Positions 7,371-58,985 of a stretch of 64,000 bases of DNA are shown piece by piece (the stretch's first letter is position 1; each line of letters begins with the position of its first letter). The position numbers and the translations under genes were made by a program. The notes under the pieces were generated by a model, which saw nothing but the letters and a program-made list of their open reading frames with translations, had not been told where the DNA came from and did no database searches. The stretch covers positions 51,213 through 115,212 of the forward strand of contig JAQTPI010000002.1 in assembly GCA_028748975.1 (NCBI GenBank), given 5' to 3'. This DNA is from Patescibacteria group bacterium. GTDB taxonomy: Bacteria > Patescibacteriota > Patescibacteriia > UBA2196.

Positions 7371-7498
7371 TTCCCAAACAACCCCTCCGTCCCGTTGCTA
7401 CGGGACACCTCCCCTTCGAAAGGGGAGGATAGTGACGGCGTTATCCCCTCCTTTCGAAGGAGGGGTGGCCGATAGCAATCGGCCGGGGTGGTTGTAAA
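7371..7498. repeat. P-family palindromic repeat cluster (cccctcctttcgaaggagggg hairpins)
   Basis: Inverted GC-rich stem-loops. The same units recur at 13081-13112, 33017-33150, 38161-38270, 41821-41960, 44007-44110 and 46145-46190. Confidence 0.7.
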
Positions 7499-32253: not shown

Positions 32254-32347
32254 ATGTCATTCCGAGCGAAGCCCGCTTCGACTGCGAAGCGAGGCGAGCG
32301 ATGGAATCTCTTATAGTTAAAAGACGAGATCCTTCCCCCGCATTTGC
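32254..32347. mobile_element. MITE-like element, gtcattccgag ... tcaggatgac
   Basis: Terminal inverted repeats. Overlaps the first in-frame ATG of the downstream PduL ORF. Confidence 0.55.
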
Positions 32348-32373
32348 GGGGTCAGGATGACACCACCATTAAT

Positions 32374-32964
32374 ATGAAAAACCAAAAAAGAACTATTATA
32401 TCGGTCGAAGTGTCGGCGCGGCACATCCACTTAAGCCAAAAAGATTTGGAAAAACTTTTTGGCCAGAAGTATAAATTGAATAAATTGCGCGACCTGTCGC
32501 AAAAAGGCGAATTTGCCAGTAAAGAAACGGTTTCCCTGGCTTCGCGTGTTAAGGGTTTTATTGATAAAGTTAGGGTTTTGGGCCCGGTGCGCAAGGAAAC
32601 GCAGGTGGAGCTGGCGCAAACAGACGTTATTAAATTGGGGATTGAGGCACCGCTCGCGGTTTCCGGCGATTTACAAAAAGTTAAACCGGTTTTGGAAGTG
32701 CGCGGGCCAAAAGGAAAAATTATGGCCAAGGCCATTGTGGCCAAACGGCATGTGCATTGTTCGCCAGCGGAAGCAAAAAAAATTGGTTTAAAAAACGGGC
32801 AAAAAGTTAAAATTGAAATAATGGGGGAGCGGGGATTGGTTTTTGACAACGTCGTGGTGCGCGTGGCGCCAAAAATGGTGATGTCTTGCCACATTGATAC
32901 GGATGAAGCCAATGCAGCCGGGCTTGGCAAAATTTGTGGAGTAGGAAAGTTAATTAGTTCTTAA
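32374..32964 (+). CDS. pduL: phosphate acyltransferase PduL-type (phosphotransacetylase)
   Basis: Two PduL repeats with ARHIHL / KRHVHC. Also RVLGPVRKETQVELAQTD and HIDTDEANAAGL, matching Salmonella PduL. Confidence 0.8.
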   Translation: MKNQKRTIISVEVSARHIHLSQKDLEKLFGQKYKLNKLRDLSQKGEFASKETVSLASRVKGFIDKVRVLGPVRKETQVELAQTDVIKLGIEAPLAVSGDLQKVKPVLEVRGPKGKIMAKAIVAKRHVHCSPAEAKKIGLKNGQKVKIEIMGERGLVFDNVVVRVAPKMVMSCHIDTDEANAAGLGKICGVGKLISS

Positions 32965-33189
32965 AGTTATTTAAAAGCTACGAATGTACTAATAAAACGA
33001 ATGTACGAATCCGTCGTTATCCCCTCCTTTCGAAGGAGGGGTGCGAGCGAGAGCGAGCGGGGTGGTTGTGGTGAAATACTTTTTACAACCCCTCCCTCCG
33101 ACTGCTGTCGGAGACCTCCCCTTCGAAAGGGGAGGATAACCAACGCACAATTAGTATATTCGTACGATTCGTAAATTCGTAGATATTTT

Positions 33190-34311
33190 ATGGAAACATT
33201 ACTTGTTCTCAACCTTGGTTCCACTTCCTTCAAATACGAATTATTCAATGCGGAAGATTTGGCGACCATAAATAAAGGCCAGTATGACCTACAATTAACA
33301 ATTAATAGACAACAGACAACAGACAACAGACAACCGAGCGACGAACTACAGGAAGAAGTGGACAGACTTTTTCGCGAGGTTTTACGCCAAGCTGGTGATA
33401 TTAGCGAACTAATGGCGGTTGGCCACCGCGTGGTCCACGGCGGCGACAAATTTTTTGCCACGCAGAAAATTAAGGAAAATGAAATTACGGAATTGGAACA
33501 GCTGAATTCTTTGGCGCCGTTGCACAATCCTTTCAATCTTGCCGGCATCAAGGCGGCCTTTGGCTATCTGCCAGAGACGCCAAATTTCGCTGTTTTTGAC
33601 ACGGGCTTTTTTAAAGATTTGCCGGAAGCGGCTAAAGTTTACCCGATTCCATACGAATATTATGAAAAAGGAATTCATAAATTTGGCTTTCATGGCATTT
33701 CGCATAAATTCGCAGCGGAAGAAGCAGCCAAAGAAATTAATAAGCCTTTGGAAAAAATAAATGTCATCAGCGTGCACCTCGGCGGCGGCGCTTCTGTTTC
33801 CGCCACGCACCATGGCAAACCAATTGACACCTCCATGGGTTTTACGCCAATGGAAGGACTGATGATGGCGACGCGGCCGGGCGATTTAGATCCGGGGGTA
33901 ATAATACAGATGCTCACAGATTTATTACAGATGGACACAGATACACAGATAAATGACGCAAAAACAATTATAGAAAAAATAAATTATATCTTAAATTATG
34001 AATCCGGCGTTAAAGGCATTTGCGGGCAAACCGATTATCTGGAACTTTTAAAAGCCGCGACCTTTGACCCCAGAGCCAAACTGGCTTTTGATATGTTTAT
34101 TAACCGGATTAAAAAATATATCGGCGCCTATGCCGCTTTGCTTGGCGAAGTTGATGCCCTGGTTTTCACCGGCAAAATCGGCGCGGGCAAACCGGAGACA
34201 AGAAAAAAGATTTGTGATAAAATGGGTATACTTAAAGACGTGCCAGTAATAGTGGTGGAGCCGCACGAGGAGTTGGAAATAGCGAGAGAAATTGCAAGTA
34301 AAAACAGATAG
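33190..34311 (+). CDS. ackA: acetate kinase
   Basis: LVLNLGSTSFKYELF N-terminus. ASKHS-family motifs. Carries low-complexity inserts at 33291-33337 and 33905-33952. Confidence 0.85.
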   Translation: METLLVLNLGSTSFKYELFNAEDLATINKGQYDLQLTINRQQTTDNRQPSDELQEEVDRLFREVLRQAGDISELMAVGHRVVHGGDKFFATQKIKENEITELEQLNSLAPLHNPFNLAGIKAAFGYLPETPNFAVFDTGFFKDLPEAAKVYPIPYEYYEKGIHKFGFHGISHKFAAEEAAKEINKPLEKINVISVHLGGGASVSATHHGKPIDTSMGFTPMEGLMMATRPGDLDPGVIIQMLTDLLQMDTDTQINDAKTIIEKINYILNYESGVKGICGQTDYLELLKAATFDPRAKLAFDMFINRIKKYIGAYAALLGEVDALVFTGKIGAGKPETRKKICDKMGILKDVPVIVVEPHEELEIAREIASKNR

Positions 34312-34389
34312 ACACAGATTGAATACGGATTTTCACAGATACACAAATAATAAAATAAATCTACATAAATAAAAACAAAAAATTATTTT

Positions 34390-34809
34390 ATGGATACCGA
34401 TAATTTTTTAGAAAAAGATTTAAGTTATGAAATAGTCGGTTGTTTTTTTGATGTTAGAAACAAATATGGTTCGGCTCACAATGAAAGAGTCTATCATCGC
34501 ACGCTCGCAGAACAGTTTGATATTAAAAAAATAAAATATATTTCTGAGCCAAAAATAGAAGTTTTTTCTCTTGATACTGGGAGAGTAATTGCCCAATACG
34601 TGCCGGACTTTTTAGTGGAAGATAAAATAGTGATAGAATTAAAAGCCAAGGATTTTAATAGTAGTAAATCTTATAGACAAACATTGGAATATTTGAAGGC
34701 CTCAAAATATGAAATTGCTTATTTAGTAAATTTTGGAGAGGAAAATTTTAAACCAGTTAGATTGATTTACACAAATAATAGAAAAAATTTTATATCATTA
34801 ATTAAATAA
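34390..34809 (+). CDS. GxxExxY family protein (PD-(D/E)XK-like)
   Basis: EIVGCFFDV...GSAHNERVY and DFLVEDKIVIELKA motifs typical of the GxxExxY family. Confidence 0.6.
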   Translation: MDTDNFLEKDLSYEIVGCFFDVRNKYGSAHNERVYHRTLAEQFDIKKIKYISEPKIEVFSLDTGRVIAQYVPDFLVEDKIVIELKAKDFNSSKSYRQTLEYLKASKYEIAYLVNFGEENFKPVRLIYTNNRKNFISLIK

Positions 34810-34856
34810 AAACAGATCTGTGTATCTGTGCAAATCTGTTTTTTATCTGTGAAAAT

Positions 34857-36698
34857 ATGTTAAGTATCAAAATCGCCGGACCCGCGGGGTTCGGAATAAA
34901 AGTCACTGGTTCAATTTTAGCCAAGGTATTTTTACGCCTTGGATATTCTGTTTTTGCCTACACCGAATATCCGTCATTAATTCGTGGCGGGCATAACACT
35001 TTTCAAGTGGACGTTAATGGAGAATGTCATCCCGAGGACTCCGACATCACGTCGGAAGACGAGGGATCTCGTAAGTTTTCTGGTGTCAACTCTCCCAGCT
35101 CCAAAGTGGACATTCTCATCGCTTTGACAGGTGAAGCTATAGAAAAAGAAAAAGATAATTTAAAGAAAGACAGCCTGGTCATTTGTGATGATACATTAAA
35201 ACATGAAAGCATTAAAACATTAAAACAAAAGGGAACAAATATTATTGATATTCCCTTAATTGAATTCGCCAAAAAAAATGGCGGAGAATTAATGAAAAAT
35301 ACAGTCGCGCTTGGAGCTTTGTTTGCCATCATCGATAATGTCATTCCGAGGAGCGGGGCGACGAGGAATCTCGTCGAAACATTAAATAAAGTACTCGAAG
35401 ATACTTTTGGTCATAAGGGCGTCGTGGCAGAACAAAACGTAAAAGCAGCGGCAGAGGGCTACGAGTGGCTAAAAAACAATAAAGACAAAATAAAATCTAC
35501 GAGATCCCTCGTCATTCCGACTGCGGCCGGAACTCCTCGGGATGACATTTTACTGCTCATCTCTGGCAACCAGGCCTGCGCTCTCGGCGCCGTGGCCGCC
35601 GGCTGCCAACTCTATTCTGCCTACCCCATGACTCCGGCCACGGAAATTTTGCATTATTTGGAAGCCAAACAAAAAGAAACAAAAATGATTGTGCACCAGC
35701 CCGAAGATGAAATTGCCGCCATTCACGCCGCGCTGGGCGCTTCTTTTGCCGGCGCGAGATCCGCAGTAGGCACTTCTGGCGGCGGTTTTGCCTTAATGAC
35801 CGAGGGACTGTCCTTGGCAGGGCAATTAGAGCTTCCTTTGGTCATTTTTGAGGTTATGCGCCCGGCTCCGGCCACGGGACTACCCACCTGGACCGAACAA
35901 GGCGATTTATCTTTTGTCCTTAATGCCGGCCATGGTGATTTTGCCAGAGCAATTCTGGCTCCCGGCAATCCGGCTGAATGTTTTGAATTAACTCAAAAAG
36001 CCTTCAACCTCGCTGACCAGTTTCAAATTCCGGTTTTTGTCATGACTGATAAATTGCTTGGTGAATCATATTACACCACTGATGAAAAAATATTTAATAA
36101 TATTGAAAAAGTGAATCGGGGAAAAATTATTGGTAATCAGAAATTAGAAATCGGAAATCAGGGACTAAACGAATTATTTGCTCGCTACAAACTGGAAAAA
36201 GATGGCGTGTCACCGCGCACCATACCAGGTACTGAAGGCGGCGAATATGTTGCCAATTCTGATGAACACGATGAGTTTGGAATCTCCAGCGAAAGCGCGG
36301 AAATAAGAAAAGAACAAATGGACAAACGCCTGAAAAAACTGGCGGAATTGCAAAAAGAAATTCCTCTGCCGACTTTGTATGGCCCGAAAGACGCGAAGAC
36401 GACTTTGGTTTGCTGGGGTTCAATGCTGGGAGCTTGTTTGGATACATTAAAACATGAAAGCATTAAAGCATTAAAGCAAAATAACATAAACATCCTGCAT
36501 TTTTCCTATATTTATCCGCTGCCAATGGGATTAACGGAATTTTTAAAGAAATTTAATAATTTAGTGCTGGTGGAAAACAACGCCAGCGGCCACTTTGGCA
36601 AACTCTTGCGCCAAGAAACCGGCATAGAGATTAAAGATAAATTATTAAAGTATGATGGGAGACCTTTCTGGTCAGACGAGATAGCCAAACTTTTATAA
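34857..36698 (+). CDS. 2-oxoacid:ferredoxin oxidoreductase, fused gamma-alpha subunit (carries six in-frame repeat insertions)
   Basis: Gamma domain N-terminus (AGPAGFGIKVTGSIL) followed by alpha domain (GNQACALGAVAAGC...YPMTPATEIL). Inserts at 35035-35081, 35193-35229, 35339-35374, 35500-35547, 36131-36162 and 36443-36476. Confidence 0.8.
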   Translation: MLSIKIAGPAGFGIKVTGSILAKVFLRLGYSVFAYTEYPSLIRGGHNTFQVDVNGECHPEDSDITSEDEGSRKFSGVNSPSSKVDILIALTGEAIEKEKDNLKKDSLVICDDTLKHESIKTLKQKGTNIIDIPLIEFAKKNGGELMKNTVALGALFAIIDNVIPRSGATRNLVETLNKVLEDTFGHKGVVAEQNVKAAAEGYEWLKNNKDKIKSTRSLVIPTAAGTPRDDILLLISGNQACALGAVAAGCQLYSAYPMTPATEILHYLEAKQKETKMIVHQPEDEIAAIHAALGASFAGARSAVGTSGGGFALMTEGLSLAGQLELPLVIFEVMRPAPATGLPTWTEQGDLSFVLNAGHGDFARAILAPGNPAECFELTQKAFNLADQFQIPVFVMTDKLLGESYYTTDEKIFNNIEKVNRGKIIGNQKLEIGNQGLNELFARYKLEKDGVSPRTIPGTEGGEYVANSDEHDEFGISSESAEIRKEQMDKRLKKLAELQKEIPLPTLYGPKDAKTTLVCWGSMLGACLDTLKHESIKALKQNNINILHFSYIYPLPMGLTEFLKKFNNLVLVENNASGHFGKLLRQETGIEIKDKLLKYDGRPFWSDEIAKLL

Positions 36699-38161: not shown

Positions 38162-38278
38162 TATCCCCTCCTTTCGAAGGAGGGGTGGCCGATCGCAATC
38201 GGCCGGGGTGGTTGTGGTAAAATGTTTTTACAACCCCTCCGCGCCTCCCCTTCGAAAGGGGAGGATAATATAACGATT

Positions 38279-41776: not shown

Positions 41777-41983
41777 GCCAGAGTAATGTCATCCCGAGGA
41801 GTAGCAACGACGAGGGATCTCGCGGTTATCCTCCCCTTTCGAAGGGGAGGTGGTCCGATGTCGCATCGGACCAGAGGGGTTGTAATGTAGCGACGACAAC
41901 CACCCCGGCCGATTGCTATCGGCCACCCCTCCTTCGAAAGGAGGGGATAGCGACCGCCTAGTTAAAAAATAAATAAAAAAAAT

Positions 41984-44003: not shown

Positions 44004-44311
44004 TTAGTCATCCCCTCCTTTTCAAGGAGGGGCAAGGGGTGGTTATTTATTTCGCCGTTAGGCGCGTCGTTTCCCCCCTCTCCTTAACAAGGAGAGGTCG
44101 GGGTGAGGTAGATCGCCAATAGGCGCATCTAATTATGTCATCCCCGCCTTAGGCGGAAATTTGGAAAAACTCGCCCAACCAGCGGGTTTTGTTTTTAGAA
44201 GTATGATTTTTTATGGAACCATTCGCGCGAATGGGTAAATGGATTTTTTTCTAAAATAAAAAAAATCCCCGTCCCAAGTTTTTCCAGGGGCGGGGAAGAT
44301 CATTTTTGTGA

Positions 44312-45874: not shown

Positions 45875-46017
45875 TTTTGCCTCCTTTGGCTTTTTGTTGT
45901 TGGTTTGGGTTGATGGAATGTACTAAAGGCATTGTAGCATGTTTAAAAAATCCTGTCAAGTGGTTTTTGTGTCATCTCGGTTTTAGGTCGACTTGCCGAT
46001 AGGCAAGAACCATAAGT

Positions 46018-46074
46018 TTATCCGCCGGAGTATCAAAAGACTTTTAGAGAACGCAGGCGGAGAAACTTAATTTT
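46018..46074 (+). repeat. Element C copy
   Basis: tttatccgccggagt...gcaggcggagaaacttaatttt. Confidence 0.55.
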
Positions 46075-46268
46075 GACTTTCAGGGCTAAAAGTGGGAGAA
46101 TTAAAGTATAAAAACAAGAGGGCGCTCGCTCCGCTCGTCGCGTTTCGTCCCCTCTCCTTAACAAGGAGAGGAAGGGTGAGGTAGATCGCCGATAGGCGAC
46201 ATCTAATTTCGTTCGCGCCCACCTAATTCTTACTTCCGTACGTAAAGTATTACGTACTCAAAAAATAT

Positions 46269-46445
46269 ATGTCAACGCAAAAATTAATTAATAAAAACAT
46301 CCGCAAACTGACCAAAGTCGGCCAGCACAGTTTTGCTGTTACCCTGCCGATGGAAATGGTTAAAAAATTGAATTGGCGCGAAAAACAAAAAGTAGTGGTT
46401 ACTTTAAAAAGCAAAACTATAACTATTAAAGATTGGAAGAAATAA
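46269..46445 (+). CDS. AbrB/MazE/SpoVT-family small DNA-binding protein (58 aa)
   Basis: KVGQHSFAVTLPMEMVKKL swapped-hairpin motif. Below the ORF-track cutoff. Confidence 0.45.
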   Translation: MSTQKLINKNIRKLTKVGQHSFAVTLPMEMVKKLNWREKQKVVVTLKSKTITIKDWKK

Positions 46446-46523
46446 ATTAAAAAAATTTGTGTAAAAAATAGCCGTCATTCCGAGCGCAATAATGGAATCA
46501 TTTATAGTGTTTTAATTTTAAAT

Positions 46524-47978
46524 ATGGATAAACAAAAACAAAAAAACTTAGGTGCTTTTTATACTCCCGTCAGCGCCGTAGAGTATATGGTTAGTAAACT
46601 GACTGGTTTTTGTGATAAAAGTAAATTATTAGAACCAAGCGGTGGTGATGGAGCTTTTGTTTCTGTAATTTTAAAGAGGGGATTACTAAAATCGGAACAA
46701 ATTACGGTTTGGGATATCAATCCGGAGGTTAAAAATTATATTGAAAATTTGGGCATAAAAAATATAGTAATAAAAGACACGCTTTTATCAACCAATTTTG
46801 CCAGTAATTCTCTCTTTAGAGGAGAATTATTTTCTCATATTATTGGCAACCCTCCGTATTTAAACAAACAAAGTGCTTATATAAAAAAGAATAAACACAG
46901 ATTAGGAGATCTTTTTAAAGAAATCGGTGCTAATGATACCTATGCCATGTTTTTATATTTAGGTTGTAAATTACTAGAAGAAAATGGCGAACTCTGTTTT
47001 ATTATCAGCGACACCTATTTGACTTTAGGAATTCATAAAAAGTTAAGAAAATTTTTATTAAAAAATTATACCATTAATGAAATCACGCTTTGTTCCAAAA
47101 AATTATTTAGAGATAGTGGTGCTTTGGTTAATACAAGTATAATTTATTTAACCAACAAAAAATCATCCGATAGCCACAAAATAATTTTTAATGATTGTCG
47201 AGAAAACGAAGCCGATAACTATATTGGTAAAAAATTTAAAACTATACAAAAAAATATTTTATCATACCCCGATTATGTTTTTGATTTTAATGGTGGGGCA
47301 AAATTACTTGGTAAAATAAACGAACTTAAAAAAATGGTAAGTCTTTTAGATGGTGGTCTAGGAATGCACACGACAGATAATAATGAATTTTTAGCCATTG
47401 TTGATTATGGTGGAAAAAAATATGCTAGCAATAATGGTATAAACAAGATTGTTTCTGCAACAGATATTGATGGGAAAAAATGGAAATTTTATCATAAAAA
47501 GGGTGGTAATAATAAATATTATCTACCGACCGAATATGCCATTCGTTGGGACAAAGAAGCGGTTTCTCACTACAAAATGCCTAAAAATTACGACATTGAT
47601 ATTAAAAGAATAGGATTTGTTGTTTCCGGCATTTGTTCAAACCTAACAGCCAGACTATCAACGCCCGGTGCTCTTTGGGAAAGCAATAAGGCTATGTGTT
47701 TTTTCCCAAAAGACCCTCAAAAATATCCGCCAGAACTTTTTGTCGGCGTTTTAAATAGTGATATTTATAACAAAATGATAAAGTTATTAAATCATACCAA
47801 TTCTTTACAAATTAGAGATATTAAAAAGTTACCCTGGCCTGATTTTACCAATGAAGATGTAAACAAAATAATAACAATCTCTAAAAATATAATTGCCAAA
47901 ATTAAAGAAAACATGGATTATAGTTTCAACGGAGAACAGGAAAAAATTAATCAAATTGTTAATAATTATTTTTTATAG
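46524..47978 (+). CDS. gamma-class N6-adenine DNA methyltransferase (TaqI/Eco57I-like)
   Basis: GAFYTP (motif X). EPSGGDGAF (motif I). NPPY (motif IV). C-terminal TRD-sized extension. Confidence 0.75.
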   Translation: MDKQKQKNLGAFYTPVSAVEYMVSKLTGFCDKSKLLEPSGGDGAFVSVILKRGLLKSEQITVWDINPEVKNYIENLGIKNIVIKDTLLSTNFASNSLFRGELFSHIIGNPPYLNKQSAYIKKNKHRLGDLFKEIGANDTYAMFLYLGCKLLEENGELCFIISDTYLTLGIHKKLRKFLLKNYTINEITLCSKKLFRDSGALVNTSIIYLTNKKSSDSHKIIFNDCRENEADNYIGKKFKTIQKNILSYPDYVFDFNGGAKLLGKINELKKMVSLLDGGLGMHTTDNNEFLAIVDYGGKKYASNNGINKIVSATDIDGKKWKFYHKKGGNNKYYLPTEYAIRWDKEAVSHYKMPKNYDIDIKRIGFVVSGICSNLTARLSTPGALWESNKAMCFFPKDPQKYPPELFVGVLNSDIYNKMIKLLNHTNSLQIRDIKKLPWPDFTNEDVNKIITISKNIIAKIKENMDYSFNGEQEKINQIVNNYFL

Positions 47979-47982
47979 AATT

Positions 47983-48864
47983 ATGAAAAACAGAAAAGTA
48001 AAATCAAATAGAGCCCAAGCCGATTATTTTGAGTTATTAGTTTGTCAATATATTTGCCACTTGTATAATGTCACATTTTCTTACAGTCAAGATTTGGCCA
48101 AGCTATCAAACAAGATCCTTGTTTTACCGGATGGCAAAGCGAGATTAAAACTACAAAATGATAATTTTATAAAAATACAGCCCAAAATCAAAGAGATTTT
48201 AGATTTTGAAATAGGTCAAAAAGGAAAAGTAATAAGCGTGGTTTGGGTTGGTAGAAATCTTTTAATTGAAACGACCTCCGATGTTGACGCCGAACACATT
48301 AATAAGCAAAAAACAAGGTTTTCCATTAAATCAATAGCCAGCACCGGCACTGGTACATTGAAAAATTTGGGTGCAAGACAAATCAAAAAATTTTTAGGAA
48401 TTGATTTTTCACGACAATATAACGAAATGTGGCGAAAACTAAGAGATCATTTAAAGGATTTTGATTTATCACAATCAAGACTGAAAAAGAAAGTGCAAAA
48501 AAATAAAAAATTATTGAAGTGGGCGACAGAAAACGGAAAAAAATATCAAACGAAATTAAATGAATTATGTCTTAATTCTTTTAATAAACTTTCTTTAAAG
48601 GAAAAGATTAATTTTCTTAATTATATTACTGACTGCAATGACGAGGATTTATATGTTATTATTGTAAATTCTGTCGACGTTATAATTTATAAACCGGTAG
48701 ATAAAAAATTAAAAATTATAAAGAATATAAAGGCCAAAAAAAATAATATGGCAGGTGCTGGTTACACAATTTATATTGACGATAAACCAACTTATCGCGT
48801 CCAAACCAACAACACAAATGGAATCGGCATCAGCGCTTATTGTCAAAGAATTTTCTGGATTTAA
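47983..48864 (+). CDS. hypothetical protein, candidate cognate restriction endonuclease
   Basis: Starts 5 nt after the MTase stop. No recognised motif. Assignment by position only. Confidence 0.3.
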   Translation: MKNRKVKSNRAQADYFELLVCQYICHLYNVTFSYSQDLAKLSNKILVLPDGKARLKLQNDNFIKIQPKIKEILDFEIGQKGKVISVVWVGRNLLIETTSDVDAEHINKQKTRFSIKSIASTGTGTLKNLGARQIKKFLGIDFSRQYNEMWRKLRDHLKDFDLSQSRLKKKVQKNKKLLKWATENGKKYQTKLNELCLNSFNKLSLKEKINFLNYITDCNDEDLYVIIVNSVDVIIYKPVDKKLKIIKNIKAKKNNMAGAGYTIYIDDKPTYRVQTNNTNGIGISAYCQRIFWI

Positions 48865-48961
48865 TTGAAAAGACGAATAAAGAAATTGACGAAAAAGTCT
48901 ATGGCTTTTACGGCCTGACGGAGGAGGAAATAAAAATTATAGAAATTAATAAATAGATAAT

Positions 48962-49828
48962 ATGAACAGTGAAGAATTTAAAAATCTCTATTCAATGCAA
49001 AGTTTGGATGAATCAATTACGCCGTTTACAAACAATGTTGGCTTTTCATTAATTCGCAAATATCCTGAAAATACAACCTATTTTAAAGACGGAAGAATGA
49101 TGTTTATTAAAGTTGCCATACTTGATGGAGGATTTTTTTACGGAGTGGATATGACTAAACCCGAAAAAAGAGGAGGAACAACCGATTATGTTATTGTTGA
49201 CGGAGAAGAATATAAGAAAAAAATTACAAATTTTTTTTCAAATGATAACGAATTTATATTTGATAATACGACTCAAAAAATAATTTATCAGCCGACAAAC
49301 AAAAGTTTTACGATGAACAAGTTTGTAGAAATTTTAGTAGCAAACCATCTTTCAGACAGACTATTCTTGAAGCGTATCTGGAACGAACTTGCTGATAGAA
49401 TTTTAAAATTTTTATTTTGGCTGTCAGATGCCCATTATGAACGAGCTCAGGTGATGATTGATAAATACGATTATGATAGGGGTGAAATTTTACCCCCAAA
49501 AGATGAAAAGAAAAATATTGAACCATTTTTTAAATATTTTTATATTTCAAAAAATATTTTGTTTTCAATTTTATTAATAACCTTTCCATCCGCCTTTTTT
49601 CTCGGTATTTATTGGGTACGCGGAGATTTTTCATTATCAAACCCAACTTTAGTTTTACTATTTTTTTTAATTTTATTTACATGCGAGAAATTGTCTATCT
49701 GGTTAGATAAAAAAATAAAAAAATTCCTTATACCACCAAAAGATCTCTTTACCGAGAAAAAAATAAACTTTATAGAAAAACTACACAATTATCAGTATCG
49801 AAACAATTTTCAGCTTAAAATAAACTAA
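48962..49828 (+). CDS. hypothetical protein with two C-terminal transmembrane helices
   Basis: Soluble N-terminal domain and hydrophobic C-terminus. Confidence 0.4.
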   Translation: MNSEEFKNLYSMQSLDESITPFTNNVGFSLIRKYPENTTYFKDGRMMFIKVAILDGGFFYGVDMTKPEKRGGTTDYVIVDGEEYKKKITNFFSNDNEFIFDNTTQKIIYQPTNKSFTMNKFVEILVANHLSDRLFLKRIWNELADRILKFLFWLSDAHYERAQVMIDKYDYDRGEILPPKDEKKNIEPFFKYFYISKNILFSILLITFPSAFFLGIYWVRGDFSLSNPTLVLLFFLILFTCEKLSIWLDKKIKKFLIPPKDLFTEKKINFIEKLHNYQYRNNFQLKIN

Positions 49829-49890
49829 TTTATTTTAAAATTTTATTGGATGCTAAAGTTTTCAAAAAATAAAAATTTAAACAAGAAATT

Positions 49891-50559
49891 ATGAACGAAA
49901 AAATATATTATCATTTTTTATCTTCAAAAAATGCAATTGATGATCTTGAGCAAAAAAGAATAAAAATTAGTTTAATAGATGAATTGAACGATCCATTTGA
50001 ATTATTGCCATATCTAAGATATAAAGAAGCTAAAAAAAGAAAAACCTATCACAACATTCGTAAAATAGTTTCAAAAAAATATGGTCTCCTGTGTTTTTCA
50101 AAAAAATGGGAGGAACCGCTTTTATGGGGGCACTATGCTGATAAACATCGGGGAATAGCAATAGGTTTTGAAATTTTAAAAGATAAAATATTGAGAGTAA
50201 AATATAATACTGTACCAAAAAGAATAGAATTTGAACTGACAAAAAATCAAGAAAAAAATATAAAATTATTTCTTGATTTGGCTAAAACAAAATATAAAGT
50301 ATGGTCATATGAAGAGGAATACAGAATATTAGTAGAACTTAATAATCGTAATGATGGTCATTATTTCATTCAGTTTGGAGATAGACTAAAAGTAAAAGAA
50401 ATAGTTTTGGGCTGTAATTTTGATAAAAAAAAGTACAAGAAGATAAAAAAATTAGCAAATCGATTACACGCCAAAGTTATACCAACTAGACAAGGCTGGG
50501 AAGATTACAAAATACGCCAATGTGGAACGAAAACTAAAGAATTTCAAAATATAAAATAA
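49891..50559 (+). CDS. DUF2971-like protein
   Basis: YHFLS...LNDPFE motif recalled as characteristic of DUF2971. Confidence 0.45.
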   Translation: MNEKIYYHFLSSKNAIDDLEQKRIKISLIDELNDPFELLPYLRYKEAKKRKTYHNIRKIVSKKYGLLCFSKKWEEPLLWGHYADKHRGIAIGFEILKDKILRVKYNTVPKRIEFELTKNQEKNIKLFLDLAKTKYKVWSYEEEYRILVELNNRNDGHYFIQFGDRLKVKEIVLGCNFDKKKYKKIKKLANRLHAKVIPTRQGWEDYKIRQCGTKTKEFQNIK

Positions 50560-50757
50560 TTTCCTCCGCCGCGCCGCGGAAAAAAACGGAGCAGAAAAAC
50601 GGAGCAGGGGATTGTCAAATTTAAAAATCAAAACCCCAAACCCTAATCCTTGGTTAATTTAGCTATAGCTAATTTAACCAAGGATTGAAAAACAGTAAAA
50701 TTAATAATGTTTGATTAATTCTGCTATAGCAAATTTAATCAAAGATTGAAAAAATAA
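50560..50757. repeat. Intergenic module R1 with 36-bp near-perfect palindrome (50648-50683) and second palindrome (50710-50744)
   Basis: tttcctccgccgcgccgcgg leader. ccttggttaatttagctatagctaatttaaccaagg. tttgattaattctgctatagcaaatttaatcaaag. Confidence 0.7.
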
Positions 50758-50923
50758 GCGGGGAGCAGACCTTTGTCAAAACTGGTTGCCCCGCTTTTTG
50801 TTTTGGGAGCTTATTTTTAAGTATAATCTAATTATAGACAAGTACAATACCCTTGTCAATTTTTTGTCAAGTCCAAATTTGACAAATTACCTTCACTGGA
50901 TGTATAATTAAGTTATCCACAAT

Positions 50924-51676
50924 ATGGCTATCCATAAAACCCAAACAAAGCTCCTGGAATTGGCCGAAAAACAAAATTTGGCTGGTTTAACTTTGCGCAA
51001 AATAGGGGAATTAATCGGCGAACCAAACAGCCCGCAAAAAATTAAACACCACCTCAACAAACTCTTTGAAAAGGGCTTATTAGTTAACAGTCTTGATAAC
51101 AAAAAAATAAGCAAAACTTCCACCGGCTTTAATTCCGAGATGAAATTAATTTCCTTGCCAATTTACGGCTCGGCCAACTGCGGCCAGGCTTTGGAATTGG
51201 CTGATGACAAAATTCAGGGCTATTTAAAAATTTCTCCCTCGATTCTAAAAGAAAAATTTAGAAAAAAAATAAAAGATTTGTATATTCTCAAAGCCATTGG
51301 CTATTCCATGAACCGCGCCAATATCAACAACAACAATATTGAACATGGTGATTATTTGATTATTGATAAAAGCCAAAATGTTCCCGAAGACAACGATTAT
51401 GTCGTTTCCGTCATCGATGGCGCGGCCAATATTAAAAAGTTTTATTCAGATAAAAAAAATCAAAGAATAATTTTAAAATCGGAATCAACTAATGATTTCG
51501 CGCCGATTTATATTCATGCCAACGATCTGGAACAATATGCGATTTGCGGCAAAGTCATTGATGTTTTAAAAGAACCCGAGGATTTTAATGACTGGCAAGA
51601 CGCCGGTTTGTCTGACACTTTGAAAGCGCTTGGTCCAATGAGCGATGAAGAACACAACTACTACATGAATTTATGA
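50924..51676 (+). CDS. LexA-like repressor (winged HTH + S24 peptidase domain)
   Basis: N-terminal LexA-type wHTH. AIGYSM (Ser nucleophile) and downstream Lys (NIKKF). Length 250 aa. Confidence 0.7.
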   Translation: MAIHKTQTKLLELAEKQNLAGLTLRKIGELIGEPNSPQKIKHHLNKLFEKGLLVNSLDNKKISKTSTGFNSEMKLISLPIYGSANCGQALELADDKIQGYLKISPSILKEKFRKKIKDLYILKAIGYSMNRANINNNNIEHGDYLIIDKSQNVPEDNDYVVSVIDGAANIKKFYSDKKNQRIILKSESTNDFAPIYIHANDLEQYAICGKVIDVLKEPEDFNDWQDAGLSDTLKALGPMSDEEHNYYMNL

Positions 51677-52011
51677 AACAAAAAGAAATTTGGATCGTTA
51701 AATATCCGGACGACGCGGCCGGCCATGAATATAAAAAAGAAAGGCCTGGTTTGATAATTGAATCTGACCAACAAATACAAAAAACCAACATCTTTACGGT
51801 GGTGCCTTTAACTTCCAATTTAAGCAACGTAACGGCCGACGATATTTTAATAAAAAAAGACCAGGAAAATAATCTTTTTGCCAATTCAGTTTTAAAAACA
51901 CACCACATCCAATCTTTTGATCGTTCTCGCTTTATCAAAGGAATTGGTAAAATTAACGAAAACACGTTGGAAAAAGTAAAAACATACCTCAAAAAACATT
52001 TCGATTTATAA
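51673..52011 (+). CDS. MazF/PemK-family endoribonuclease toxin
   Basis: KERPGLIIESD ... NIFTVVPLTSN ... IQSFDRSRF PemK signature. ATGA stop/start overlap with the upstream gene. Confidence 0.75.
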   Translation: MKQKEIWIVKYPDDAAGHEYKKERPGLIIESDQQIQKTNIFTVVPLTSNLSNVTADDILIKKDQENNLFANSVLKTHHIQSFDRSRFIKGIGKINENTLEKVKTYLKKHFDL

Positions 52012-52098
52012 CCCTATTGCTTTTCTAAGTTGACTAACCATCATTTTTTTTATTCCCGGTTTAGTGCTAAAATTAAACCATCATAACCACCACAAAAA

Positions 52099-52285
52099 TT
52101 TCCTCCGCCGCGCCGCGGAAAAAAACGGAGCAGAAAAAACAGAGCAGGGGATTAAAAAAATTAAAATAATTAAATCCCCAAATCCTTGGTTAATTTAGCT
52201 ATAGCTAATTTAACCAAGGATTGAAAAACAGTAAAATTAATAATGTTTGATTAAATTTGCTATAGCAGAATTAATCAAACATTAA
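52099..52285. repeat. Intergenic module R2 (palindromes at 52184-52219 and 52244-52280)
   Basis: Same leader and palindromes as R1. Confidence 0.7.
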
Positions 52286-52345
52286 AAATAACATAAAAAA
52301 ATCATATTCTCTAATTCGCGCGAATAGGCGAATAGTTAAAAAAAC

Positions 52346-52684
52346 ATGCAAAAATATCAAAAAATATTTTGGGCGATTATTATTCTTATAGCCGTGACCG
52401 CACCAATAATTGTTTTGGCACTCCAGCCACCAGGCGAAAGAGTGGCCGGAGTAACCATTTTACCCCAAGCCAAACACTCCTTTGCCTATATTTTTTCTAC
52501 CTATAAGATACATTTCTTCTTTTTAGTGATATTAGCTATTTTATTAATAACTCCCCTTGATTTTGTCAAAAGAGAAAAAGTTATTAAAATAATTTTTTTA
52601 AGCATCTTTCTAATTCTTCTTGTGCTGACCGGTAAGACTTTGTATACCGATATGACCATGCCCACTATTATAATTTATCAATAA
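52346..52684 (+). CDS. small polytopic membrane protein
   Basis: Three hydrophobic helices. Confidence 0.4.
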   Translation: MQKYQKIFWAIIILIAVTAPIIVLALQPPGERVAGVTILPQAKHSFAYIFSTYKIHFFFLVILAILLITPLDFVKREKVIKIIFLSIFLILLVLTGKTLYTDMTMPTIIIYQ

Positions 52685-52687
52685 GTA

Positions 52688-52812
52688 TTTCCTCCGCTGC
52701 GGCGCGGCGCAAAAAAACGAAAAAAAAACGGAGCAGGGGACTAAAAAAATTAAAATAATCCAAAACCCTAATCCTTGGTTAATTTAGCTATAGCTAAATT
52801 AACCAAGGATTT
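52688..52812. repeat. Intergenic module R3 (perfect 36-bp palindrome 52773-52808)
   Basis: ccttggttaatttagctatagctaaattaaccaagg. Confidence 0.7.
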
Positions 52813-52821
52813 AAAAAATAT

Positions 52822-53694
52822 ATGAAAAAAACCATTCTCTATTCTGTTTTGGCTCTGGTCATAATCGTTTTAATTATCGGGGCTATTCGCTTTTTAACGC
52901 CGGAAGACACCTGGCTTTGCCAAAAAGGCGAGTGGGTGAAACATGGCAATCCCTCCGCGGCGGCGCCCACCACCGGTTGCGGCGAAGCAAAAGCTTGCAC
53001 CACGGAAGCAAAAGTTTGTCCGGATGGTTCGGCTGTGGGACGAACCGGCCCCAATTGCGAATTTTCGCCTTGTCCCGGGGAAAAATCAGTGACTTTTTTC
53101 TGCGATAACAATAGAAAAATTCAGGCCAAATTCTATTTGCCGCAGGACACCTATGTTGATTTGGTTTTAAGCGACGGCCGCAGTTTACAATTGCCGCACG
53201 CCATTTCGGCAAGCGGCGCCCGCTATGCCAATGCTGACGAAAGTCTGGTTTTTTGGAACAAAGGCGACACTGCTTTTCTGACCGAAAATGCCACTACCAC
53301 CTTTGCCAATTGCGTGCTTTACACCGACAATAACACCGGTCTGGCCAACCCCGCCTCGGTCAATTGCACGGCCAAGGGCGGCACACTCAAAATTCAAAAG
53401 AACAGCAAGGGCGGCGAATACGGAGTTTGTTTTTTTGAAGATAATCGCCAATGCGAAGAGTGGGCGCTCTTGCGCGGACAATGTCCGGTGGGCGGATTAA
53501 AAGTCACTGGCTATCAAACCGACGCGCAGATCTATTGCGCTATTACCGGTGGCACTGTTGAAGGCATGGACTCGCCGGTTCCGATGTGCAAAAGAATTGA
53601 CGGAACATATTGCAACGCCGAATCTAATTTTAATGGCGACTGCCCAGACCCCAATGACCCCAACCCCAGCGCCGGCAATGTGGAAGCGCCATAA
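52822..53694 (+). CDS. secreted MliC-like + DUF333-like cysteine-rich protein
   Basis: Signal anchor. FFCDNN...YANADESLVF (MliC-like). NPASVNC..GG..C.FEDN.QCEEWA (DUF333-like), present twice. Confidence 0.5.
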   Translation: MKKTILYSVLALVIIVLIIGAIRFLTPEDTWLCQKGEWVKHGNPSAAAPTTGCGEAKACTTEAKVCPDGSAVGRTGPNCEFSPCPGEKSVTFFCDNNRKIQAKFYLPQDTYVDLVLSDGRSLQLPHAISASGARYANADESLVFWNKGDTAFLTENATTTFANCVLYTDNNTGLANPASVNCTAKGGTLKIQKNSKGGEYGVCFFEDNRQCEEWALLRGQCPVGGLKVTGYQTDAQIYCAITGGTVEGMDSPVPMCKRIDGTYCNAESNFNGDCPDPNDPNPSAGNVEAP

Positions 53695-56505: not shown

Positions 56506-58326
56506 ATGCCAAAATGGATTTTGAAAGAAAAATACACTTCCGAATTTGCGGAAAAACTGCCGGGATACTCCCCGGTGGTTTGGCAATTGTTATATGACCG
56601 CGGATTAGATAATCAGGAAAAAATCGACGAATTTTTCAATCCTGACTATTTGAGTGATATTCACGACCCATTCCTGTTTAAAGACGCTAAAAAGGCCTCT
56701 AAATGCGTTTTAGAGGCCATTGAAAAGCAGGAAAGTATCCTTGTTTTCGGCGATTATGACGCTGACGGCGTTACCGCCAGTGTTGTTATGGAAAAAACTT
56801 TGCGCAAGCTGGGCGCCCAAAATGTTGATGTTTTTATCCCGCACCGCGAATTGGACGGCTATGGCCTAAATTTGGAAAAAGCAGAAGAGTTGGCCAAAGA
56901 AAAAAAATATAATTTAATCATTACAGTTGACTGTGGTATTACCAATTTTGAGGCGATAGAAAAATTAAATTCCGCGGGGATTGATACGATTGTCACCGAC
57001 CATCATTTGGCCACCGAAAAACTGCCACCGGCTTTTGCCATTCTTAACCCGTCAGTGGAAAGTGAAATTTATCCTTTTAAAAAATTGGCTGGCGTGGGCG
57101 TGGCATTCAAATTGGCGCAAGCGCTGTTTCGGGAGAAACAAGAAAAACAAGAAAAAAGTGAAAAACAAGAAAAGGGGAAAAAAGAAAAAAAGGAATTACA
57201 TAGTTACGAAGCTTTTGAAAAATGGCTTTTGGATTTGGTCACGCTCGGCACTATCGGTGATGTGTCACCGATTCTGGGCGAGAACCGCACCCTGGTAACC
57301 TATGGCCTGAAAGTTTTAAACAAAACTCCGCGCAAAGGTTTGCAGGAATTAATCCGCGTTTCCAGTTTGTCCGATGGCGAAGAATTAAAAAATCTTCCGC
57401 TCGGCGCGGATTTGTATGATTTAAATATCAGAAATATTTCTTTTCAACTTGTTCCGCGCATCAATGCTGCCGGCCGAATTGACCATGCTTCCTTGGCGTT
57501 GGAATTATTATCTACCGAAGATGAAATTGAAGCTATTGCCTTGGCGCGCGACATTCAGGAAAAAAATTTACAGCGCCAAAAAATTGTGGAAGTTGCCATG
57601 AAAGAAGCCAAAGAAATTTTGGGCGAAGTTACGGACGATAAAAAAATTCTCATTGCGGCGAGCGCCAATTGGCCAGTGGGCATTGTCGGTTTGATTTCCG
57701 GCAAATTAATGGATGAATTTGCCCGGCCGGTAATTTTGATGAATCAGGACGGTGAAAATTATGCCGGTTCCGCGCGCAGTATTGCTGAATTTAATATTAC
57801 CGAGGCTTTAGGCGAATGCGGCGAATTTTTAGAAAGATTTGGCGGCCATGCCAAAGCTGCCGGATTTGGCATCAAAGGCAAAAAGAATTATAATAAATTC
57901 ATTGCCAAAATGGAGGCGTTGGCAGAGGAAAAATTAAAAGACGTGGAACTTACGCCGACGATTGAAATTGACACGGAAATTAAATTTTCAGATTTGAATT
58001 GGGAACTTTGGGATGAAATTAAAAAATTTGAACCCTTTGCCGAAGCCAACCCCTTGCCATTATTTTTGGTAAAAAATTTGAAAGTGGAAAGCGTAGAAGA
58101 AATGGGCAAAAACGGCGGGCACCTGCGTTTTTATTTTTCTGACGGTGCTCTGGCGCATAAAGCCATTTCTTTTGGCACGGCCGTTGAGTGGAAAGATAAA
58201 ATTAAAAGCGGCGACATAATTGACGCTGTGATGGAATTCGGAATAAATGAGTGGAATGGCAACAGGGAATTGCAGTTTAAACTGGTGGACTTTAAGCCGG
58301 AGGGTTGTCATCCCGAGAAGGCCTGA
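56506..58326 (+). CDS. recJ: single-stranded-DNA-specific exonuclease RecJ
   Basis: DHH motifs (DYDADG, DHH). DHHA1 GGGH-like. EKQ repeat insert at 57134-57193. Last 6 codons and stop lie inside a MITE. Confidence 0.85.
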   Translation: MPKWILKEKYTSEFAEKLPGYSPVVWQLLYDRGLDNQEKIDEFFNPDYLSDIHDPFLFKDAKKASKCVLEAIEKQESILVFGDYDADGVTASVVMEKTLRKLGAQNVDVFIPHRELDGYGLNLEKAEELAKEKKYNLIITVDCGITNFEAIEKLNSAGIDTIVTDHHLATEKLPPAFAILNPSVESEIYPFKKLAGVGVAFKLAQALFREKQEKQEKSEKQEKGKKEKKELHSYEAFEKWLLDLVTLGTIGDVSPILGENRTLVTYGLKVLNKTPRKGLQELIRVSSLSDGEELKNLPLGADLYDLNIRNISFQLVPRINAAGRIDHASLALELLSTEDEIEAIALARDIQEKNLQRQKIVEVAMKEAKEILGEVTDDKKILIAASANWPVGIVGLISGKLMDEFARPVILMNQDGENYAGSARSIAEFNITEALGECGEFLERFGGHAKAAGFGIKGKKNYNKFIAKMEALAEEKLKDVELTPTIEIDTEIKFSDLNWELWDEIKKFEPFAEANPLPLFLVKNLKVESVEEMGKNGGHLRFYFSDGALAHKAISFGTAVEWKDKIKSGDIIDAVMEFGINEWNGNRELQFKLVDFKPEGCHPEKA

Positions 58327-58365
58327 TAACAATCAGGCCGACGAGGGATCTCGCGGATGACAATT
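58305..58365. mobile_element. MITE (ttgtcatcccgag ... gggatctcgcggatgacaa) supplying the recJ stop
   Basis: Perfect terminal inverted repeats. A second related unit lies at 58400-58440. Confidence 0.6.
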
Positions 58366-58440
58366 AAATTATAATAAAATTAATTTGTGGCATAAGCTAC
58401 GAGATTCCTCGTCGCTCTCGCTCCTCGGAATGACAATCAC

Positions 58441-58863
58441 ATGAGTAATATAAAAAAACTAATCATCTTTACCGATGGCGGCGCGCGCAATAACCCAGGG
58501 CCAGCCGGCATCGGCGTGGTCATCTGTGATGGCGCTGATGAACATAAAGTCCTCGCCACCCACAAGAAATACATTGGTGAAACCACCAATAACCAGGCCG
58601 AATACAAAGCCGTGGTTTTGGGCTTGGAGGAAGCCAAACAAATGAAAGCGGAAGAGGTGGAAGTGCGCTTGGATTCAGAACTTGTTTGCCAGCAAATCAA
58701 TGGCGAATATAAACTCAAAAATAAGGATTTTCAAGAGAGTTTCATTAAAATTTGGAATCTGCGCCAGAGCTTTAAAAAAGCGACTTTCAAACATATTTTA
58801 CGCGAGAAAAACAGATTGGCGGATAAATTGGTGAATCAGGCGATTGATGGAAGAAGTGAATAG
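58441..58863 (+). CDS. rnhA: ribonuclease HI
   Basis: TDGG...GPAG. TNNQAEYKA. Asp/Glu catalytic pattern. Confidence 0.8.
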   Translation: MSNIKKLIIFTDGGARNNPGPAGIGVVICDGADEHKVLATHKKYIGETTNNQAEYKAVVLGLEEAKQMKAEEVEVRLDSELVCQQINGEYKLKNKDFQESFIKIWNLRQSFKKATFKHILREKNRLADKLVNQAIDGRSE

Positions 58864-58985
58864 AGAAGAGAGAATAGTGGAGAGTGAATAATAACTAAAT
58901 TACTCCTCACTATTCACTAATTATTAATGCCACTTGACACGATTTTTAATAGGGTGTATGATTTATGTATTGTTTTTTAAAAATG

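Follow-up and report, generated by a model that had tools for sequence, protein, structure and literature searches.

The window analysed here comprises 64,000 nucleotides (64 kb) of contig JAQTPI010000002.1 from the metagenome-assembled genome of a Patescibacteria group bacterium (assembly GCA_028748975.1, positions 51,213 to 115,212). In this window, recJ (56506-58326, + strand; 606 aa in the list of open reading frames (ORFs); Pfam DHH, DHHA1 and RecJ_OB) is followed by rnhA (58441-58863, + strand; 140 aa; Pfam RNase_H/RVT_3), and the end of recJ together with the interval between the two genes is occupied by two hairpin repeats in inverted, head-out orientation, referred to here as units A and B. 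Our analyses suggest that these repeats are Ssn-related motifs (SRMs), the hairpins of which are the targets of small GIY-YIG nucleases of the Ssn type, and that the pair at 58305-58436 is most probably the gene-less remnant of an SRM-ssnA-SRM cassette.

The recJ/rnhA junction

Unit A (58305-58363, + strand) is an SRM-type hairpin with a long loop. It begins with TTGTCATCC at 58305 (sequence from 58305 onward: TTGTCATCCCGAGAAGGCCTGATAACAATCAGGCCGACGAGGGATCTCGCGGATGACAA), contains a 44-nt core, GTC-ATCCC...GGGAT-C, at 58307-58350 and has inverted ends of 9 nt, TTGTCATCC/GGATGACAA, that close it; its loop holds a nested perfect 8-bp hairpin (58320-58339, + strand; GGCCTGAT-AACA-ATCAGGCC) that contains the recJ TGA. 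The sequence 3' of unit A is TTAAATTATAAT, and an AT-rich spacer of 36 nt (58364-58399, + strand) lies between this unit and unit B (58396-58436, - strand; TTGTCATTCCGAGGAGCGAGAGCGACGAGGAATCTCGTAGC), which has its core at 58403-58434 and the stem ATTCC/GGAAT. The outer head of unit B, ...GGAATGACAA, ends at 58436 and the rnhA ATG follows at 58441. The partner unit adjoins the rnhA start, as a sequence-only reading of this DNA had stated, but the gap is four nucleotides (TCAC) and not three.

The last codons of recJ, G600-A606 (58303-58323), and the TGA (58324-58326) read GGT TGT CAT CCC GAG AAG GCC TGA on the + strand, and all except the first two bases of 58303-58326 lie within unit A; 20 nt of the unit are coding and the stop codon is positioned in its loop. 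That the repeat supplies the tail and stop of RecJ, as the same reading had it, can be read directly from GCHPEKA and the TGA within unit A. The C-terminal peptide covering the tail is ...VDFKPEGCHPEKA. Upstream of the repeat, the RecJ_OB profile is complete, its final position aligning with residue 595 of the 606-aa protein, and the conserved part of the protein extends to K597 (58294-58296), leaving residues 598-606 as an unconserved tail. RecJ homologues are conserved to ...NEWNGNRELQFKxxDxK and diverge right after ...VDFK. In the 112 homologues with a recognisable end motif, the tail after ...ELQxKxxD has a median length of 5 aa as compared with 11 aa in the window RecJ, and CHPE is present only in P0001 and P0018. 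P0018, from the relative L004, is the only other RecJ with GCHPE and the repeat is present there at the DNA level; a relative with the same C-terminus but without the repeat was not found. If GCHPEKA were a native RecJ C-terminus with a chance likeness to the repeat, nothing except the shortness of the overlap would speak for it, whereas the distribution of CHPE, the presence of the whole 44-nt unit including the 3' arm and the eight-fold enrichment of the family over shuffled sequence described below all speak against it. We attach next to no weight to such a coincidence.

Folded as single-stranded DNA (ssDNA), unit A reaches -20 kcal/mol (z = -5.95; 0/200 shuffles as stable) and the whole block from unit A to unit B -32 kcal/mol. 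Structures of this stability could be host regulatory hairpins that influence the termination, attenuation, stability or translation of the recJ-rnhA transcript in the way that REP sequences can, independently of any nuclease. In keeping with this idea, the unit next to the rnhA ATG holds its position in the relatives L095 and L004, and a GC-rich hairpin at only 4 nt from an ATG might be of consequence in a window in which a Shine-Dalgarno match, even a loose one, is present at 7 of 38 gene starts and leaders are otherwise AT-rich. However, neither hairpin is followed by a T-run, and a consensus scan of 58290-58445 identified no terminator-like site (GC-rich hairpin plus T-run) and no good promoter consensus; moreover, the same units are found in frame in the oxidoreductase gene POR alpha, downstream of unrelated genes and flanking ssnA in many lineages, and we therefore suggest that the family spreads for its own reasons. 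No Rfam family reached the gathering threshold in the units, and the Rfam scan of the whole window returned one tRNA only. Host regulation as the explanation of the pair is unlikely in our assessment, but a regulatory role is compatible with the interpretation as SRMs as a secondary effect.

A family of hairpin units in the window

The head pattern GTCATYCCGRG, allowing at most one mismatch, has 17 matches in the window against 2.1 expected from 100 shuffles, i.e. an eight-fold enrichment, and 0/100 shuffles reach 17. In 14 of the 17 cases a T stands before the head, as it does in units A and B, which begin with T-GTC-AT. Thirteen of the 17 are followed within 70 nt by a perfect 5-nt complementary arm and then C, compared with a rough chance estimate of ~0.3, and in 13/13 of these the C or T at stem position 3 is paired by G or A, respectively (ATCCC/GGGAT, ATTCC/GGAAT, ATCCT/AGGAT). 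By a structural scan (GTC, 5-nt stem, loop of at most 70 nt, exact complementary stem, C), from which AT-rich false matches were removed, we identified 18 genuine units in 64 kb, each with C directly after the palindrome: 14 are located in the non-coding 18% of the window, three inside POR alpha, and one overlaps the recJ stop. Seven head-out pairs (+ then -) with units 8-78 nt apart have only the heads and stems of the units in common, and their loops and spacers differ. The repeated module is the single hairpin unit of ~25-60 nt, which is also found solo, and not the pair.

Two further groups of units illustrate the range of the family. A tail-to-tail pair between rnhA and greA (58985-59024, + strand, and 59033-59057, - strand) ends 14 nt before the greA ATG at 59072, and three short-loop units (12928-13072) lie just downstream of a gene ending at 12918; one of the latter (12969-12996, - strand; TGTCATTCCCGCGAAAGCGGGAATCTTG) is identical to the Neisseria NTS consensus at 26 of 28 positions. 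At rnhA, greA and pduL, GC-rich SRM sequence stands directly upstream of the gene. All five solo units are on the plus strand, i.e. the coding, G-rich and presumably leading strand, and minus-strand units are found only as right-hand members of pairs. A strand bias of this kind would be expected of an element that is recognised as ssDNA, with the reservation that the sample is small.

Relation to the published Ssn system

The properties of the units recall those described for Neisseria by Chenal et al. (2025, Nat Commun 16:2388, PMC11893778), in which the NTS, CGTCATTCCCGCGMAVGCGGGAATCYRG, is a subset of the dRS3 repeats. According to these authors, SRM hairpins are the targets of small GIY-YIG nucleases (SsnA, cd10448), are recognised solely as ssDNA and are cleaved a few nucleotides upstream of the hairpin; in Neisseria, the GTC 5' of the palindrome matters for cleavage and the C 3' of it is critical for binding of SsnA. 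SRMs are present near 71% of ssnA homologues and on both sides in 42% (PMC11893778). The system has been described mainly from Proteobacteria, with Rickettsia remarked as SRM-rich; Patescibacteria are not mentioned in PMC11893778, and the literature that we searched contained no follow-up paper.

Units A and B have the head (H)GTC(W)(Y) directly 5' of a palindrome, the stem of which is maintained (ATCCC/GGGAT in unit A, ATTCC/GGAAT in unit B), and a trailing cytosine (GGGAT-C and GGAAT-C, respectively). The published search string, HGTCWYN(0-2)YYVSBRHN(0-5)WNVSBRGN(0-2)RNCYNB, which was tuned on 29 genomes from four phyla (PMC11893778), has two matches in the window, at 12969-12996 and 13043-13072, as compared with 0.07 expected. 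GIY-YIG genes accompany such units in L004, L095 and L096, where the junction is orthologous to that of the window, as well as at six further Patescibacteria loci, as detailed in the next two sections. By head, hairpin, trailing cytosine and gene association, i.e. as judged from sequence, the units are Ssn-related motifs of the NTS/dRS3 type.

The same junction in related genomes

In three relatives with 61-64% identical RecJ (L004, L095 and L096) the junction has the layout recJ-[SRM +]-GIY-YIG-[SRM -]-rnhA. In all three, recJ runs into the left SRM, each in its own frame: RecJ ends with ...IDFKGCHPERLAKDPVLS in L004, with ...IKMLSSRS in L095, where the TGA is in the loop, and with ...WRGLSSR in L096. 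Consequently, the tails before the stop differ by lineage, with GCHPEKA in the window and LSSRS, LSSR and GCHPERLAKDPVLS in relatives. Other genomes show variations of the same arrangement. In L082, recJ is followed by an SRM and a GIY-YIG gene, after which the contig stops; L015 resembles the window in having a pair but no gene, with a TGA inside the head, GTCATCCTGA, and a partner unit that abuts rnhA; and in L024 and L025 the RecJ tail is a whole translated unit.

On the right-hand side, both the unit and the number of nucleotides between it and the rnhA ATG are conserved (window GGAATGACAAtcacATG, L095 GGAATGACAActacATG). The unit beside this ATG keeps its place in L095 and L004, and the counterpart of unit B in L004, L095 and L096 is the unit that flanks ssnA on the 3' side. 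The spacer between units A and B is identical at 29 of 36 nt (58364-58399) to the last codons of the L095 ssnA (CTG TTG AAT TTA TAA) and their 3' flank; the score of this alignment exceeds that of all 1000 shuffles, and spacer, unit B and ATG together are identical at 65 of 80 positions. Given that the spacer is homologous to the end of the L095 ssnA and that relatives retain the cassette, we suggest that the pair in the window is a deletion derivative of SRM-ssnA-SRM.

These comparisons bear on the proposal, made from the sequence alone, that the pair is a miniature inverted-repeat transposable element (MITE) the insertion of which remodelled the gene ends. We took this to mean a classical MITE, i.e. 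a non-autonomous element with terminal inverted repeats, mobilised by a transposase, that entered the recJ/rnhA interval only recently and altered the ends of both genes. The outer 13 nt do form inverted repeats (TTGTCATCCCGAG/CTCGGAATGACAA; 12/13 positions match), and the element is small and non-coding and belongs to a multi-copy family with seven head-out pairs in the window. However, no target-site duplication was recognised at the other pairs or around the junction pair (...GAGGG|TTGTCAT ... ATGACAA|TCAC), the interiors differ between pairs, a single unit that also occurs solo is what is repeated, and the linked gene encodes a GIY-YIG nuclease and not a DDE or serine transposase. The occurrence of this layout in relatives with 61-64% identical RecJ and the origin of the spacer from ssnA are best explained by a deletion in the lineage of the window and not by a recent insertion. 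The remodelling proposed for rnhA is not borne out either: the coding start is unchanged, and the rnhA N-terminus and the 'GGAATGACAA-N4-ATG' context are the same in L095. The start of pduL is likewise unchanged (see below). Taken together, these observations make a MITE very improbable.

A profile search of genome contigs with the RecJ alignment served for synteny and background; the matches listed have at most 48% identity, and the closest genomes are not among them. recJ is followed by rnhA in 54 of 87 sequences, the window included, with the two genes often adjacent or overlapping, and other insertions at the junction in distant relatives are ordinary genes, e.g. for a deaminase or a peptidase-like protein. 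We also considered whether the junction is a hot spot for SRMs: six junctions are occupied as compared with 2.2 expected (Poisson-binomial P ~0.008). A hot spot is not claimed because the excess is marginal without the index case and a 2-kb locus that has no other junction.

Small GIY-YIG genes flanked by the units

Units flank the gene at 9/9 inspected Patescibacteria GIY-YIG loci (L002, L004, L068, L082, L090, L092, L093, L095 and L096), and at several of them the stems have changed in a compensatory manner (CCCGAA/TTCGGG versus GCTGAA/TTCAGC). The proteins of the relatives have 94-139 aa, and their main Pfam match is PF01541, with an occasional weak, overlapping T5orf172 match. In a tblastn search of PLSDB, the L002 protein identified two gonococcal chromosomes filed as plasmids, in which a 94-aa ORF is located amid canonical NTS copies in both orientations. 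Because this Neisseria gonorrhoeae ORF has the length of 94 aa reported for SsnA (PMC11893778) and is surrounded by NTS copies, we take it as the likely SsnA orthologue. Identity to this ORF is 46% for the L002 protein (E = 3e-28) and 40% for that of L004 (E = 3e-21), i.e. both are small single-domain GIY-YIG proteins well beyond the E < 1e-10 used to delimit Ssn homologues (PMC11893778). At E ≤ 1e-10 we found >5,000 homologues, many of which are named as Patescibacteria proteins. Searches of solved structures and NCBIfam with the GIY-YIG protein returned weak or generic matches only.

The contribution of SRMs to gene ends is not restricted to recJ. In L092, L004 and L096, the right-hand SRM supplies the stop of the GIY-YIG gene itself (TGA within GGAATGAC), and in L093 the left SRM provides the end and stop of an upstream NUDIX gene; SRM-supplied stops are located at 960-1000 in L093, at 1270-1300 in L092 and at 7127-7157 in L004.

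Units in POR alpha and upstream of pduL

POR alpha (34857-36698) carries three units in frame: unit 1 (35026-35068, + strand) is translated as CHPEDSDITSEDEGS, unit 2 (35340-35370, + strand) as VIPRSGATRNL, and unit 3 (35503-35546, - strand) is also translated in frame. The CHPE of this oxidoreductase had been attributed to the same family as the RecJ tail, and unit 1 confirms this. In comparison with orthologues the three units are clean insertions, and lineages that have them are interleaved with lineages that do not; at site 1, the unit is carried by P0121, P0122, P0126, P0127, P0129 and P0130, and the site is empty in P0123-P0125 as well as in others. Comparison of filled and empty sites identified no target-site duplication, and a vague GTCA-like motif lies beside one site. 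POR alpha also holds in-frame arrays of the 8-mers CATTAAAA/CATGAAAG, which give LKHESIKTLKQ twice, and repeats of the AATCAGAA type, which give GNQKLEIGNQ, and an alignment shows that the orthologues vary in repeat insertions at the same loops.

Upstream of pduL there is an SRM pair at 32254-32363 (units at 32256-32308, + strand, and 32328-32361, - strand), and L004 has an SRM pair at the same junction. An element overlapping the first ATG of pduL had been suggested as a second case of remodelling, but the ATG in the repeat head at 32357 is out of frame with pduL. The conserved start is the ATG at 32374, 12 nt past the unit core and outside the repeat, which aligns with the start of the L004 orthologue.

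Other repeats and cassettes of the window

A second arrangement of a small nuclease gene between inverted repeats is found at recJ/rnhA in closer relatives. In L001 (3830-4320) and L002 (6800-7270), a PDDEXK_3 gene lies between recJ and rnhA with inverted arrays of the ACGAATA type on both sides, and in L001 the reading frames of recJ and this gene are joined into a single one of 735 aa. The window itself contains a small PDDEXK_3 gene (34390-34809) between inverted arrays of short ACAGAT-type repeats (34303-34861). PDDEXK_3 genes with inverted flanking repeats are a second type of small-nuclease cassette.

A different, GC-rich palindromic family (CCTCCCCTTCGAAAGGGGAGG...), with arms of up to 57 nt that are 96-98% complementary, is scattered intergenically, at 7378-7495, 33018-33153, 38162-38268, 41830-41964, 44010-44109 and 46149-46183. 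These palindromes sometimes adjoin SRM units; for instance, the SRM at 41788-41819 is followed by a palindrome from 41830. Finally, a low-GC island at 46000-52900 (GC 0.28-0.33 versus about 0.42 elsewhere) is probably a horizontally acquired restriction-modification region: it contains an Eco57I-type methylase/restriction gene (46524-47978) and 131-nt repeats with a 42-nt palindrome at 50645-50686, 52181-52222 and 52770-52811.

Discussion

Combining the comparison of the junctions with the relation of the units to the Ssn system, we suggest the following scenario for the recJ/rnhA junction: (i) the ancestral state of the clade would have been a cassette, SRM(+)-ssnA-SRM(-), at this position, (ii) recJ, which lacks a stop codon ahead of the left SRM, reads into this unit and terminates in its loop, giving rise to a short, lineage-specific and unconserved tail, and (iii) in the window lineage, the body of ssnA would have been deleted, leaving the two SRMs and ~36 nt of the ssnA 3' end. 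With the gene gone and only the SRM pair and its spacer left, the remainder would therefore have taken on the appearance of a MITE. Seen against this background, the ending of recJ in a repeat is a minor side effect of the kind that one would expect from a repeat system already described. The tail of RecJ is presumably functionally neutral, and the units of the window may still be ssDNA substrates for binding or cleavage by an Ssn nuclease whose gene lies elsewhere in the genome.

Several observations weigh against this interpretation. The 64-kb window contains no ssnA homologue (tblastn, best E = 0.7), and none of the best 120 GIY-YIG homologues, of >5,000, is on a contig of the same length as that of the window (116,821 bp), which is a weak negative only. 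The closer relatives L001 and L002, with 87% and 70% identical RecJ, respectively, hold the PDDEXK_3 cassette with other repeats at the junction. Lastly, the published SRM string allows for loops of 5 nt or less and misses units A and B, in which the loops measure 18 and 34 nt. This string, however, is a search heuristic and not a definition, and in our reading the unit that flanks ssnA in L004 fails it too; we therefore treat units A and B as long-loop variants.

A more far-reaching idea is that SRM hairpins are mobile by means of Ssn nucleases, in a single-strand process that leaves no target-site duplication, and that ssnA works with recJ and rnhA on ssDNA. Hairpins could then insert in frame wherever a loop encoded by an essential gene tolerates them, POR alpha being an example. 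RecJ is a 5'-3' ssDNA exonuclease, and ssnA might be located between recJ and rnhA since it cooperates with both on ssDNA. If this were true, Ssn/SRM would be a new kind of hairpin-transposition or ssDNA-restriction module and not a passive repeat. We regard this idea as speculative and rather doubtful. As for published views, the spread of SRMs is explained only by a proposed scenario similar to that of insertion sequences (IS) or REP/RAYT, and whether SRM-ssnA-SRM is a mobile element is a question left open (PMC11893778). The loci described here provide concrete cases for asking whether SRM-ssnA-SRM behaves in this manner.

Irrespective of how the units spread, the findings have implications for annotation: C-termini and some internal loops of Patescibacteria proteins can be derived from repeats. 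The tails GCHPEKA, LSSRS and GCHPERLAKDPVLS are not features of RecJ, and CHPE or VIPRS motifs are translated hairpin repeats. The data also extend the Ssn/SRM system to the Candidate Phyla Radiation (CPR) and document gene-bearing and gene-less states of one cassette at a single orthologous site.

Comparison with known systems

The junction pair resembles MITEs in being small and gene-less, with inverted termini and multiple copies, and in being derived from a gene-bearing parent by internal deletion. It differs from them in the lack of a target-site duplication and of a transposase, in its mosaic interior and in that the unit rather than the pair is repeated. Other parallels exist with the Rickettsia palindromic elements (RPE) and with Correia/NEMIS, which are about 100-150 bp in length and are known to enter coding regions. 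Palindromes of the RPE type are tolerated in frame in conserved genes or at their ends, where they add short peptides, and are variably present among orthologues. As far as tested, RPE and Correia/NEMIS are sequence families unrelated to the units of the window. A link between RPE and Ssn is merely hinted at by the remark on the SRM-richness of Rickettsia (PMC11893778).

With REP/BIME-RAYT systems (REPtrons) and the ends of IS200/IS605, the SRM cassettes have in common that hairpins recognised as ssDNA flank, in inverted orientation, the gene of the presumed spreading enzyme, and gene-less doublets scattered intergenically are also typical of REP/BIME. The analogy to REP/RAYT has been drawn before (PMC11893778). 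In contrast to REP/RAYT, the enzyme is a GIY-YIG nuclease and not a Y1/HUH transposase, and Ssn is not known to transpose. We consider REP/BIME-RAYT, as well as RPE, to be functional analogies only.

The closest match is the Ssn/SRM system of Neisseria. The units of the window have the (H)GTCAT head, the palindrome ATTCC.../...GGAAT and the C directly after it in common with the NTS and other SRMs, and as for the neisserial ssnA, units are located in inverted orientation on both sides of small single-domain GIY-YIG genes. Head-out pairs without a gene are also present beside the NTS-flanked ssnA-like ORF of the gonococcus. There are also differences. The host belongs to the Patescibacteria, the loop in most units of the window measures 18-50 nt and frequently contains a nested hairpin, these units fall outside the published string, and the junction of the window has lost ssnA. 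Moreover, 4/18 units overlap coding sequence, so that entry into coding regions is far more common here than in Neisseria, where the overlap is 2% in N. meningitidis (PMC11893778). What is new in comparison with the described system is thus the host lineage, the long-loop variants, the frequent overlap with coding sequence and the gene-less state at an orthologous site.

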